From Octopus sinensis (taxonomy: Eukaryota): a stretch of 64,000 nucleotides of DNA. The first letter of the stretch is position 1, and every line of letters begins with the position of its first letter. This document shows positions 8,314-55,725 of the stretch, in pieces. The translations under genes and the position numbers were made by a program. The notes beneath the pieces were generated by a model, which saw only the letters and a program-made list of their open reading frames with translations, was not told the origin of the DNA and did no database searches. The stretch spans positions 36,890,001 through 36,954,000 of the forward strand of contig NC_042998.1 of NCBI RefSeq assembly GCF_006345805.1. The letters run 5' to 3'.

Positions 8314-8653
8314 CCGGAGTAAGCACATAAATATGAACCAAGATGGAAAAAAGAGTACTCAAATACCAGAGGTAGAGTAATATGCTTTATTTAAAAGCAG
8401 CAGAAATATAGCGAAAGCTGTTACTCAGAGTTTCATGTTCCCGTTCGTCGGATAGTTTTGTTAAAATAGTTCAGAAATATCGATTTGGTCAACACTAGTT
8501 AAAGGATACACCTTTAAATATGTGTATCCTTTAACTAGTTTTGACCAAATTGTTATTTCTGTTCTTTTTTAACAAAACTGTCCGACGAACAGGGACGTGA
8601 AACTCTGAGTAACAGCTTTTGTTATATTTCTGCTGCTTTTAAATAGAGCATAT
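8314..8653. mobile_element. Penelope-like terminal-repeat fold-back element inserted in (TA)n
   Basis: Arms 8380-8511 and 8522-8653 are inverted copies with a 10-nt loop. TA tracts lie on both flanks, and each arm contains a hammerhead-like motif. Confidence 0.8.
8574..8620 (+). ncRNA. Minimal type I hammerhead ribozyme motif with CCGACGA core (mirror copy 8414-8459, minus strand)
   Basis: ctgt-CCGACGA-ac..gt-GAAA-ctc t gag-TA-acag. Stem I is ctgt/acag, stem III is the near-palindrome ACTC-T-GAGT, and the cleavage triplet GUA ends at 8611. Confidence 0.7.
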
Positions 8654-9639
8654 ATTTATATATATATGTGTGTGTGTGTGTATGTATGTATACGTTTGTG
8701 TGCCTGTGTTTGTCCCCCAATATCACTTGACAACAGGTTCGGCAAAAGAGACCGATAGAATAAGTACTAAGCTTAGAAAGAATATGTTCTGGGGGCGATT
8801 TGCTCGACTAAAGGCGGTGTTTCAGCATAGCCACAGTCAAATGTCTGAAACAAGTAAAAGAGTAAAGAGAGTAATATACATACATATATGATTATACCAA
8901 AATTTTCTTTTACTTTTAGAGAGGATGTATGTGAGTGATTTGAGGGCATTGTAATGCTATTTTATGAGGCCCAGTGATCATGCAGAGGATGCCTATTTGT
9001 TGTATGTGTCATGTCTTGAGTCACATTTACAATAAACAGAGTTTATTGTAAATGTGACTCAAGACATGACACATACTAATTATTTAATACTAATCCTATG
9101 CCCAATGCGGCAAACTGACAGAATGTTTAGCACGCCGTGCAAAATGCTAAGCGGCGTTTCGTCCACTAATATTTCGTGGGTTTGCGTCTTCAATGATGTT
9201 AATTTTACAGTGAAATCGGTTTATTATAAAATGTGGATGATATAGGAATTTGAATAAGTCACAAAGGTAATCCTCGCTTCCTTTAGAACAGGGTAACTTA
9301 ATAAATGAGATGACACTACATTGTTGAAAACTGGAAACAAAATGTCGTCGAAACACGAATATCTTGGAAACAAAATAGACCAAAACTCAAGGAATACTAT
9401 ACCTACAACACTTAAAGGGGAAGGATTGACGAGCCTTGAGATGTATGGGGTTGCAGCCAGTGATTGTGTATAAGGTTTAGGCCAATGGAATACATAACAA
9501 GTATAAGGGACCATGCATAGACCTTCATATATACTGGATAATACACGGAAATGAACCCAACAGAACGGGGGTGGACAATAGGGTTAAAGTGAAATTCAAA
9601 ATCGATAGAATTAGGCAAAAAATTTTATCAATGCCCTAA

Positions 9640-11138
9640 TCGCTATTTATAAAACTGAAATGCGAAAAGTTTGCTTGTTTGTTTGTTTGATTTTGGCATT
9701 GAGAACGGGTTAAAGGCCACTAGATCCCGTCGGATTGACTCCAACATTTACAGGGACATGTAAAATGTGGTGAGGATGCCAGTGGGCTACGTTAGAAATC
9801 CCCATCTTAAAAGGTGTCGTTGCTAGGGCCAAAAACTCACTGTGACAAGTCTACTCTCATTCTTTTATGTATCTGTCTTCCTCCGTCACTCATTCTCTTT
9901 CCTTCCTTCCCATCACTTTCTATATATAGCGTTGTTTCACAGCGTCTATCTCCCTTACCTTCACTTTCTCTTTACGACGTCGTGTCACGGCGTCCTCAAT
10001 CTCCCCCTCCTCCCCTCCTTCAACAGCGCTTTCACACACTCTGTCTGCCTTCATAGAGAGAATTATCATCGCCACAACCACCACCACACAATCATGAGAA
10101 CAAATATTATGAATCAGATATTTATTGGGTTAATTTATATATATGTGTGTGTGTGCGTATGTGTGTGTGTTCTATATATAAATATGTATATATAATGTAT
10201 ATATACAAAGTGTATATATCTGTATTTATGTATATTAAACTTTTTAATATTTTTTGATAGTTATATATATTTAAAAAAAATTATATATATAAATTAATAA
10301 ATTTAATTTTAAAATTAGATAATTTAAATTTTTAAATTTTATATATTTTGTACATTATATTTTTATTTTTATGTTTTGGGTTATGTTTTTCACTGTTTAA
10401 TTTGCCTAATAGTGGTTTTATCTCTAATTTAATTTATATATATATATACTATGTATACATTTGTATATATAATGCGTACACACACACACACACACACACA
10501 CACAAATATAGATATATAATGCGTTTGCGCTAGCCTTTAAATCGTTAATGTGTTGTTGTCGATGATGAAGAAGTTTTGAATGCTTGCCATGGTGAGTCTA
10601 CTGTCGTGAGAAAGAATCACTTCAAAACTTGGTGTTTAGAAATTTTCTTTTACAACAAGTTCAAAATTTTACGCCAGCCGTTAAACTGCCACTACGTTGC
10701 TGTCTGTCGTTAACAAATGCTAGCCATGGTGACTCTACTATCCTCAGATTCTATCCCTTCAAACTTTGGTTTCCAATATTTTTTTTTTATTCAGCTCGCA
10801 AGATCGTCTGTCCCTTTTAAATGTTAGTGTTTTGCTGTCTGCCTTGAAGCAGACCTTTCCGTTGTCACTGCCTGATATTTATGATTGATCTTTCAAAATA
10901 TTTTACTTTCTCAACTTACTCAAGATCTTTTGTTGTTTATAAATGAGAGAGAGATAGATAGAGAAAGATAGAGAGTAAGAGAAAGCGAGGGAGAGTCCGA
11001 GAGAAAGGAAAAGTAAGTGGGAAAGTGGGAAACTGAGAGAGAAAGGAGAGAGAAACAAAGAGGGAGAATGTGGTGATAAAAAACAGAAAGTAAGAACCAC
11101 ACTCTTACCCGCGCGTAGAGCGGGTCACCTTAAGCTAG
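9640..11138 (+). mobile_element. Apparently full-length non-autonomous Helitron (about 1.5 kb)
   Basis: Starts A|TC (9639|9640), followed by TATTTATAAAACTGAAATGCGAAAAG and (TTTG)n as in Lep1-like Helitrons. Ends with hairpin ACCCGC/GCGGGT (11107-11125), a 9-nt spacer and CTAG (11135-11138) followed by T. No TSD. Confidence 0.75.
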
Positions 11139-11984
11139 TATATTATATAAGCGGTTTAAATTGATTGAACATTGATTTCGTTTTATTTTCATGGAGCTGG
11201 AAATTATCGATGCATTCCAATGCATTACCAGATACCTTTTACTTAAAAGATTAGGATTCGGATAAACATAGACAACCACATTTGATTTTAATAAAATATC
11301 GATTTCAGTTGGTAAATGAATTCAAGGCAGTGGCTGTCGTTTTCAGTGATTCATATTTTAAAGATACCTTTATGCAAGTAGTTTCCAAATTCCCACGTCA
11401 GAAAAATTGAGGAATAAGCTGAAGGCAATCTCACCTGAAACGAAAGAAAATCTAACATTAGATAATAATACCGGGTAATAATTTGTCTCACAAACATTGA
11501 GTGTCATATCGCATTCTATGGAAGACGCGAAACAAACCTGTACCACAGGCACAGAAACTACATGTCTGTGTTACAAAATATATGAATGGGTTACACTCTT
11601 TGAAATATTCACAGAAACATATCCTGCTTAGAATGAGTTCTTAGTCATTGTGCTGAAATATTCTTTTTTGCTAGAATGGTGATTTAATACACCACAAATT
11701 AAATTTTCCAGACAAATGAGTGATGAGGCTAATTTAACTTCGTTACAAATAAAACATTTGTCGTTGTTGTTGCTAAGTGAATTCCGTGTTTGAGGAGTAG
11801 GGACGACACAGTTTCTTTTATTATGTATAACAACCCAAATTCCTGTTCTTTTAGGAACATGAATTCAGGTGTGCAAAAGTATAAAAAATAAAAATTAATT
11901 CTTAAAAATTCCACATTGATACGTGAGCCATGAATAGATTCCCCTTAGCTAATGAACCAATCAATGAATTTCCCCAGTTAATAA

Positions 11985-12450
11985 AAAGCCCTTTTCATAT
12001 CTCAACCTTTAACTCTATAGCCTTCATACAAAGGTCATCACTCACTACCTAAACAAACCTTCCTCCTTCCTACCTTCAACCTCTCCTACTACCACTAGCC
12101 TCATTATTAACCCTTACTCTGAAATCTATTTTCTCCTCCCACTACTCTCTATCCAAACACCCCCATCTCCCCTTCCTAACAGACTTAACTCACCACAAAA
12201 TCATTCCATGTTTAAACTGTCCCTGTCAACACCTAATTTAAAATTCTCCAATGTGAAATTCTCCCCTGAAGACGAAGGCGGTGTTATCCAAGTAACTATT
12301 ATTATTCCGGACCAGCAAGCCTATAGAAACAGCTGTTGGACTAAACGGGGAAAACTCTACCCATTAAAAAGTAGAAAAAGCATGCAGTTCTGAAATAAAA
12401 ATCTACTACATCCCATTGCAGAAACAACTGTAAGCCAATGATGTTCATTA
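11985..12450 (+). mobile_element. Penelope-like 3' terminal fragment with degenerate hammerhead (12263-12340)
   Basis: C/T-rich tract, then CTGAAGA (12266-12272), a long stem II region, GAAA (12326-12329), palindrome ACAGCTGT and a downstream AATAAA. Stem I is only about 2 bp. Confidence 0.55.
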
Positions 12451-54900: not shown

Positions 54901-54904
54901 AGCT

Positions 54905-55398
54905 TCAAGCAATCCGTAGTAAATATACAAACAGCAAATTTAGGGACAATAGTGGTTTATGGAGACGGAAGGTTGTGGATTTGTTTCGTATCGAAGTACG
55001 ATAAACTGAAAGTTCTCTTGATATTTTACGTTTGGCGACCAGGATTGTTGTGTATGTGGATAAGAATACAAAAGTTAAGGAATGGAGTACATAAGATCCG
55101 GGCTACTTATGTTTCATAGCGAGTGGGACCTTAGAAGTGGTAAATATCCAAGCCAGGTGTGTACTGCAGGCTGCTCTCCTCGCCGAGGATATCTTGATTA
55201 AATGAAAGTTTACATTGTTGCAAGGAAGTACGTTTTAACACATGGAAGATTGCATCAGACAATCTAAAATTTCATTTAATCAAGACATCCTTGGCCTGAA
55301 GAGTAACCTGCGGTATACAACTCGCTTGGATATTTACCATTTCCAATGTTCCGTCTCGCTATGAAACATATGTAGCTCGGATCTTATCTACTCCATTC
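54905..55398. mobile_element. Penelope-like terminal-repeat fold-back element next to a TA-rich tract
   Basis: Inverted arms 55080-55218 and 55259-55398 with a 40-nt spacer. The segment 54905-55079 is assigned only tentatively. Confidence 0.78.
55293..55377 (+). ncRNA. Type I hammerhead ribozyme motif with enlarged stem II
   Basis: ggc-CTGAAGA(55296-55302)-(60 nt)-GAAA(55363-55366)-CATATG-TA-gct. Stem III is the palindrome ACATATGT. The mirror copy has lost the core. Confidence 0.65.
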
Positions 55399-55439
55399 TC
55401 TGTATATACATATACATATATACATACATATATATATAT

Positions 55440-55725
55440 ATAATCAAAATAAGCAACAAGAATGACTCCGGTAATTTGGTACAATCGTTTCGTACTACAT
55501 CATTTTATTAAATGTTGTATTACAACAGATTTAAGATGCTGAGTACTCATCAGCCAATTATAGAGGTTTTTCCATTATAGAGGTTTTCCAAATTACCGTA
55601 GTCATTCTTGTTGCTTATTTTGATTATAATCACCCCACAAATTTTTATGGATAACACTATACAAAATTCTGGTGCATCTAAATTAAGTATCATATTCATT
55701 TGGATCTAAATTTTTGCTGAACTTA
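55440..55725. mobile_element. Penelope-like terminal fragment with short inverted arms, between (TA)n tracts
   Basis: 40-bp inverted arms at 55440-55479 and 55588-55627, plus a small tandem duplication ATTATAGAGGTTTT(T)CC at the junction. Confidence 0.78.
55476..55557 (-). ncRNA. Type I hammerhead ribozyme motif with long paired stem II
   Basis: ttgg-CTGATGA-gtact..gcatc..tgttgta a tacaaca..gatgt agtac-GAAA-CGATTG-TA-ccaa. All three stems can form and the site is GUA. Confidence 0.8.

Follow-up and report, generated by a model that had tools for sequence, protein, structure and literature searches.

Four fold-backs in a 64,000-nucleotide window of the Octopus sinensis genome (NC_042998.1, positions 36,890,001 to 36,954,000; coordinates below count from the first base of this window) are very probably pairs of 5'-truncated 3' ends of Hydra-clade Penelope-like elements (PLEs), arranged head to head within TA repeats and likely produced in one event from one RNA template. 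By the same assessment, a further motif at 28998 is what decay has left of one end of a long interspersed nuclear element (LINE), R2-like and unrelated to the PLEs, whose rearranged hammerhead is predicted to cut itself. The fold-back architecture is already published; our single addition is the likely origin of both arms from one template, for the family of the unit at 55440 only. Through this detail, genome sequence can inform the question of how inverted ends of Penelope elements arise, which PMC8557442 lists as unresolved.

A first-pass annotation of the window, made from its letters alone, had described four hammerhead-bearing fold-back units, here numbered with their families as 1 (8314-8653), 2 (18192-18571), 3 (55080-55398) and 4 (55440-55725). 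Self-comparison of the window confirms that the four are unrelated, with no mutual matches, and that each has inverted arms of 79-98% identity: 8380-8653 (88%), 18171-18592 (84%), 55080-55398 (79%) and 55439-55479/55588-55628 (98%, over only 41 nt). The hammerheads read outward in each fold-back, so that the two 3' ends are outermost and the two truncated 5' ends meet centrally. Unit 3 reaches further left than annotated, through its tail to about 54898, and that side has no TA tract.

The type I order CUGAnGA, stem II, GAAAC, near-palindrome (stem III), GUH is present in 4/4 units, as proposed. Most of these hammerheads are not minimal, however, as they had been called: 55-70 nt lie between the core and GAAA in units 2-4. 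A hammerhead descriptor gives 2 strict hits in the window against 0.13 in shuffles, and 3 against 0.23 with U4C allowed; the U4C core of unit 1, CCGACGA, is the majority state of its family. Unit 2 fails the strict scan because the site of its + arm is GUG and the first stem II pair of its - arm is mismatched. Rfam has zero hammerhead matches in the 64-kb window, and among copies the hammerhead core is no better preserved than its flanks. Whole units fold in silico into long hairpins, in keeping with the hairpins foreseen for read-through transcripts. Four sets of contigs over 54900-55800 show multi-copy noise, with A>G differences also in a large run of unknown kind, so that they are uninformative about editing or expression. 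The high density of units is local: the window has 4 hammerhead-bearing fold-backs in 64 kb, and 213 kb of loci selected for a different repeat have 1.

Families were counted in the assembly containing the window (G000; L-numbers below denote individual loci compared) by exact 19-21-mers from the tails, and all counts are lower bounds: at least 1257 matches for unit 1, 109 for unit 2, 42 for unit 3 and 392 for unit 4, with 0 for reversed controls. The unit-4 sample comprises 90 loci of 100 listed out of the 392, and the others the first 30 matches of each family; duplicates were removed (L064 and L076 in unit 4, L239 in unit 3). In the usual copy, one arm stops at an internal TA-like point and the other continues through a tail of about 98 (unit 4), 72 (unit 2), 67 (unit 1) or 210 nt (unit 3). 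A TA run follows the complete tail in 74/81 loci of unit 4, 19/29 of unit 2, 18/26 of unit 1 and 10/21 of unit 3, and stands at the tail-less end in 39/47, 9/9, 15/18 and 3/12, respectively. Random window positions have one in 2.8%, so that the enrichment the annotation had called for is found far above background, though weaker in unit 3.

The same ends are attached to coding sequences. Long unit-4 arms continue into a GIY-YIG frame, and unit-4 ends occur at 22/30 best endonuclease-frame loci, the query's own locus being one of them. At L211 a pseudo-long terminal repeat (pLTR) with its tail precedes an open reading frame (ORF) that carries RW (RWI), DKT, YRDD and CxCX5C and is interrupted by another element; these motifs are the Hydra diagnostics of PMC8557442, and the parent of unit 4 is therefore assigned to that clade. 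GIY-YIG was detected in 2/5 unit-4 parent pieces, with the Pfam GIY-YIG match at the cut-off in L102. In units 2 (L141) and 3 (L228) the tail runs directly into the ORF's start, while L129 (unit 2), L160 (unit 1), L225 and L233 (both unit 3) carry endonuclease pieces with the same linker. RWK is found in L228 and KWK/RRKWK in L129 and L141; the parent ORFs have the CxCX5C linker, no CCHH, and CxxC and CxH around E and N. The comparison thus supports the link, sought for each family, of all four to reverse transcriptase (RT)/GIY-YIG ORFs of putative Hydra-clade PLEs, which combine a C-terminal GIY-YIG, RWK/DKT, the CxCX5C linker, a pLTR hammerhead and insertion into (TA)n (weaker in unit 3).

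In unit 4, breakpoints span -11 to beyond -900 (88 position-ordered loci), and an inverted arm adjoins 47/88 of them. Seven copies have the same junction, located at a CCGG palindrome, but do not form a clade (p 0.20). Apparent breakpoint clusters at -481/-486 (unit 4) and -81 (unit 1, with the first references) were rejected as reference artefacts. Breakpoints vary between copies, and the fold-backs are therefore read as insertion by-products, the TA-targeted PLE scars that the annotation had offered as one of two explanations, which the ORF links and TA runs also favour. Within a unit-4 copy, by contrast with this variation, the two breakpoints lie no more than 20 nt apart in 31/47 cases (permutation mean 10.4, maximum 21); the symmetry persists without the CCGG hotspot (24/40) and for arms longer than 45 nt (16/24 vs 4.3 expected). 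The arms of one copy diverge by 4.0%, vs 8.3% between copies, and have 76/186 variant columns in common vs 4% expected. Junctions overlap by at least 4 nt in 19/47 copies vs 2% expected, and 13 contain extra bases. The tail-less arm is the longer one in 15 copies vs 6, an unconvincing direction bias. Matched breakpoints, together with private variants common to both arms, therefore indicate that the two arms of a unit-4 copy likely come from one template.

Several observations weigh against this picture. The tail-less end of unit 3, with its few TA runs (only 3/12), more often shows alternating purine-pyrimidine (8/12). ORF links rest on 2/56 (unit 2), 1/30 (unit 1) and 3/60 (unit 3) loci, and the Hydra assignment comes from motifs and by-eye comparison with published sequences, not from a tree with references. 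An adjacent inverted arm is missing in 41/88 unit-4 loci. Breakpoint symmetry is not significant in unit 1 (11/18, p 0.08), unit 2 (2/9, p 0.30) or unit 3 (3/12, p 0.32), and the variants shared in unit 4 could also stem from later gene conversion between arms. The tail-less arm is the longer one in 15 copies vs 6, an unconvincing direction bias.

Three other origins of the fold-backs can be weighed against these data. That cleavage of the template by the hammerhead sets the 5' breakpoints of short arms is unlikely. The short arm of unit 4 in the window begins exactly after GUA, and 35/130 ends of its family lie in the 25 nt downstream of the site vs 13/95 upstream; yet this excess is mostly the CCGG hotspot, the four families pooled give 50/241 vs 28/191 (p 0.13), and uncleaved RNA is the main substrate in the in vitro assays of PMC11167929. 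Moreover, 191/254 arm ends run through the site, which is why we take the template to be mostly uncleaved. Overall, breakpoint positions are not determined by cleavage.

It is quite improbable that each TA tract received two insertions, or copies of two templates, independently of one another, and that the hairpin acquired its symmetry and shared variants afterwards through gene conversion and deletion. Such a history would suit the weak or absent symmetry of the three older families, as well as several unit-1 copies that resemble symmetric fold-backs with a later one-sided deletion, but one tail and one tail-less end are the rule, junctions carry microhomology, and it is the youngest family that shows most symmetry.

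The annotation's second explanation, a class of non-autonomous ribozyme mini-elements (MITE-like, that is, resembling miniature inverted-repeat transposable elements, or retrozyme-like) that move as complete hairpins, is highly improbable and largely refuted for units 2 and 4: the recurrent CCGG junction, the similar 900-nt units formed by several unit-2 copies and the concentration of unit-1 breakpoints just 5' of stem I would fit it, but the seven CCGG copies are no closer mutually than random sets and have non-hotspot nearest neighbours, the 900-nt units have different junctions, and the ends match the tail and no-tail ends of PLEs, with arms that continue into the endonuclease ORF. Ends that are asymmetric (a tail on one) and arms of 10 to more than 900 nt are not those of MITEs, duplications being unreadable inside (TA)n; nor are the units head-to-tail tandem monomers with a type I hammerhead, as in non-LTR (long terminal repeat) retrozymes, but head-to-head and continuous with PLE ORFs.

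Under the preferred reading, of PLE 3' ends inserted from one template, the flanks and in vitro work on another PLE suggest that the PLE endonuclease would nick both strands of (TA)n. Reverse transcription would start at two fixed sites, the tail end and the internal TA-like site; copies do end at both, and their use as starts is our interpretation. On a mostly uncleaved template, synthesis would stop early and the two ends would join at short inverted microhomologies, as found in the 55440 family. Either the same RNA would serve two complementary DNAs (cDNAs), one beginning at each boundary of the tail, as PAc does in vitro, or one cDNA would fold back. The hammerhead would be a passenger from the pLTR, decaying after insertion.

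Some individual copies merit description. The unit-2 family copies L121, L124 and L012 have their junctions close to a short inverted repeat within the element, its two halves about 430 nt apart, a pattern consistent with a microhomology-guided fold-back. The tail-bearing arm of L151, L153, L159 and L163 (unit-1 family) lacks the core, deleted roughly between the stem I strands, and the inverted arm keeps it; either RT skipping of folded RNA or later deletion in the hairpin could account for this. Units 3 and 4, of different families, have one short TA tract in common (55399-55439), and PLE ends nested in a similar way occur at L187 and L189. Hydra-type ORFs with a long asparagine-rich stretch between RT and endonuclease are found at L207, L208, L211 and L212; such a stretch is described for rotifer Penelopes (PMC3846280). 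A 180-aa frame at 22318-22857 (-) is similar to the LINE fragment that interrupts L211.

The three motifs annotated as single-arm relatives, at 12263, 27767 and 28998, are of two kinds. The first two are indeed PLE ends, while the third belongs to another class of retrotransposon; read as type I, it has no stem I. Copies of the 28998 family end a few bases past a second GAAAC; a TA run follows immediately in 2/19 loci, and 1/20 have an inverted arm. The ORF upstream of the motif encodes an RT, a CCHC knuckle and a PD..E nuclease, and in L461 a single frame of 749 aa holds RT, CCHC knuckle and a PD-(D/E)xK-type endonuclease. It matches RVT_1 (E 1.8e-22), and its nearest solved relative is an R2 protein; the knuckle and nuclease motifs were read by eye, without a Pfam hit for them. 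The motif terminates 8/10 best nuclease-domain loci. Judged by these sequence features, the element whose 3' end lies at 28998 is an R2-like LINE with a restriction-like endonuclease (RLE), of a group which we take to be HERO-like, no named HERO reference being among the relatives compared. Of 21 long G000 loci, two (L461 and L474) reach beyond the 5' untranslated region (UTR), and ahead of that region each has the motif a second time; in three metagenome contigs the ORF is permuted around the motif. With the motif at both ends of these full-length copies (2/2), the LINE has a partial-tandem layout as in PLEs. No poly(A) or fixed target was seen at the LINE ends in the loci compared.

The motif runs in the order cleavage site, GAAAC, CUGAnGA. 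A metagenome search with one G000 LINE protein alone gave no matches; an alignment of 12 homologues retrieved 80 loci. After removal of 8/36 loci with less than 200 nt following the ORF, 28 3' UTRs remain, of which 10 have GAAAC before CUGAnGA and 0 the usual order; on the opposite strand of the same 28, either order occurs in 2. In 9/10 GAAAC-first loci, an upstream GUH pairs with both flanks, giving stems I and III. The core is present in 14/80 metagenome loci, always on the sense strand; shuffles give 0.05, and other G000 loci a single case in 2.09 million strand-bases. The full descriptor is passed by 8 of the 80, against 0 in 20 shuffles.

Stem II (5-6 bp) forms between the strand before GAAA and a strand that begins with G and lies upstream of the site. 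The strand following CUGAnGA has its partner (4-14 bp) further upstream still, on the other side of a hairpin, and a further helix flanks stem III. Two extra helices thus stand between CUGAnGA and stem II. The hits form about 10 lineages plus G000 by DNA similarity, and different sequences keep the same helices across these roughly 11 lineages; the extra helices exceed upstream-region shuffles in 10/11 (p <=0.03; L385, p 0.12), with the near-copies L386, L390, L417 and L435 excluded. An alignment of nine divergent loci has CGAAAC, CUGA-GA and two more columns without variation, a G of the site among them. On the RT tree the motif has a patchy distribution across two well-supported clades, and variants of it occur at two more loci. 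In the variant at L393, GAAAU pairs with an AUA site, so that a change beside the core is compensated. The window copy has lost the cleavage triplet through a 2-nt deletion near 28965, which removed two of its bases, and is predicted to be inactive.

Sequence comparison strongly supports this motif as a candidate for a new permutation of the hammerhead within the terminal repeats of LINEs. We give about even chances to the broader proposal that widespread R2-like LINEs carry an undescribed permutation, split at A9/G10.1 by two helices, in PLE-like direct terminal repeats, where it would cut tandem transcripts to unit-length or circular templates, a convergence on the Penelope strategy. Intact copies can pair into stems I, II and III plus three further helices; tandem transcripts would be cut at the motif into unit-length, possibly circular, templates; and reverse transcription would start from a fixed point about 115 nt downstream and pass repeatedly around a template that is redundant or circular.

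Against this stand the 5 changes that motif presence requires on the RT tree, the 18/28 related 3' UTRs without the GAAAC-then-core order (in some of which it lies further out or is a variant), the many G000 copies without a readable stem II 5' strand, and our finding no tested precedent for a two-helix insertion at A9/G10.1. It is conceivable, though rather doubtful, that the motif, for all its likeness to a hammerhead, does not cleave and is instead a conserved signal for protein binding or reverse transcription: inserted copies retain all of it, so that their template either had not been cut or had been ligated again, structured UTRs are bound by proteins of the R2 group (described in PMC6765202), and the topology breaks an assumption of PMC10085705. 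Yet the only invariant columns in the nine divergent loci are essentially those of the hammerhead core (CGAAAC, CUGA-GA and the site G), and stems I-III pair exactly around a GUH. If the motif cleaves, as predicted, the hammerhead fold extends past the six block orders thought possible, in a form that would escape standard descriptors and Rfam, which gives zero hammerhead matches in 8 LINE loci. A ribozyme and terminal redundancy would then be tied to a LINE group, and retrotransposition from circular templates would become testable with short RNAs.

Feature coordinates are collected in Table 1. The family of the single end at 27767 appears to be Neptune-type by its CX4CxxC motif; most of its copies among those listed (L330-L348) have the core CUGUnGA, not CUGAnGA. 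A candidate further unit at 31204-31501 proved to be a (TAA)n/(TTA)n inversion. A 75-nt near-perfect palindrome (96%) at 9002-9076 has neither hammerhead core nor TA flank. No host gene was identified within the window.

Table 1 Features of the window, with positions, strand and details.
Feature	Positions	Strand	Details
Unit 1 tail	8314-8380	-	~67 nt, one arm only, ends at (TA)n
Unit 1 tail-bearing arm	8381-8511	-	core 8451-8445 (CCGACGA), site GUA 8424-8422
Unit 1 tail-less arm	8522-8653	+	core 8582-8588, GAAAC 8599, site GUA 8609-8611
Single 3' end, another Hydra-type PLE family	11944-12368	+	core 12266-12272, site GUU 12335-12337
Unit 2 left arm	18183-18390	-	tail-less in this copy; core 18356-18350, site GUA 18273-18271
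Unit 2 right arm	18391-18580	+	core 18403-18409, site mutated to GUG 18486-18488
Single 3' end, PLE family with CX4CxxC linker	27657-27883	-	minimal hammerhead, degenerate core, ends in (TA)n
R2-like (RLE) LINE 3' UTR remnant	28686-29079	+	
Decayed motif copy	28928-29013	+	helix a' 28928-28933, hairpin b 28934-28947
Decayed motif copy, continued		+	stem I 28967-28973, GAAAC 28981-28985, CUGAUGA 29001-29007, helix a 29008-29013
Unit 3 tail, partial	54898-55068	-	family tail ~210 nt; beyond the first-pass coordinates
Unit 3 tail-bearing arm	55069-55257	-	degenerate core 55183-55177
Unit 3 tail-less arm	55258-55399	+	core 55296-55302, site GUA 55372-55374
Unit 4 tail-less arm	55439-55577	-	intact hammerhead, core 55553-55547, site GUA 55482-55480
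Unit 4 short arm (41 nt) and 98-nt tail	55588-55726	+	starts at the first base past the cleavage site; ends in (TA)n

Like the Hydra-clade endonuclease-containing (EN+) PLEs of PMC8557442, the elements behind the fold-backs combine GIY-YIG at the C terminus and RWK/DKT/CxCX5C motifs with a hammerhead close to the 3' end and (TA)n targets, and they too leave inverted, 5'-truncated copies of which one end bears a tail (Fig. 2 of that work); the stem III/stem I region of unit 1 reads nearly like the one listed there for Hydra-2_Amil. The window families nonetheless differ from the Hydra families listed there, their tails are longer (67-210 nt vs 30-40), core and GAAA stand 55-70 nt apart in units 2-4, and unit 1 has a U4C core. 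Within-copy breakpoint symmetry and shared variants do not appear in the passages of PMC8557442 compared. With the minimal PLE hammerheads of PMC4209133, where opposite-strand pairs 100-700 bp apart are already reported, the units have in common type I topology, a palindromic stem III and dispersed truncated copies, but most hammerheads here have a long stem II domain. The Poseidon element PAc shows, in vitro, two start sites bounding the tail, cutting and extension of both strands and a dispensable hammerhead (PMC11167929); its starts lack homology to the cut DNA, whereas both ends here lie at TA-like bases able to pair with the target. Palindromes at the inverted junctions of Adineta Penelope are read as self-priming in PMC3846280.

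The LINE motif is closest to the non-circularly permuted type-SGC and type-CSG hammerheads of PMC10085705, with which it has in common the order site-GAAA-CUGAnGA, all core residues, a short stem I-stem II linker and an extra helix beside stem III. The type-SGC order with stems I and III is found in the family, not in the window copy. PMC10085705 assumes that CUGAnGA runs straight into stem II, and its types have the stem II 5' strand following CUGAnGA; in the LINE motif this strand lies upstream of the cleavage site, no stem II strand occurs 1-2 nt after CUGAnGA, where the post-core strand pairs upstream instead (up to 13 bp), and two helices separate A9 from G10.1. L395 and L416 also permit SGC-type pairing. 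The motif sits in LINE terminal repeats, and the text of PMC10085705 gives no retrotransposon context (the word occurs once in the text and 0 times in the supplement); variant alignments of type SGC in that supplement, which we covered by word search, could hold related sequences. We found no description of the motif in the open literature, subscription papers and Repbase lying outside the search. PMC6765202 states that some LINEs and SINEs (short interspersed nuclear elements) use hammerheads, citing papers on hepatitis delta virus (HDV) and a schistosome SINE, and describes ribozyme-associated processing of R2 as HDV-like and at the 5' end. Like R2-group RLE non-LTR retrotransposons, the 28998 family has an RT followed by a CCHC knuckle and a PD..E endonuclease, but its motif is of hammerhead type, not HDV type, and stands in a direct terminal repeat like the pLTR of PLEs.

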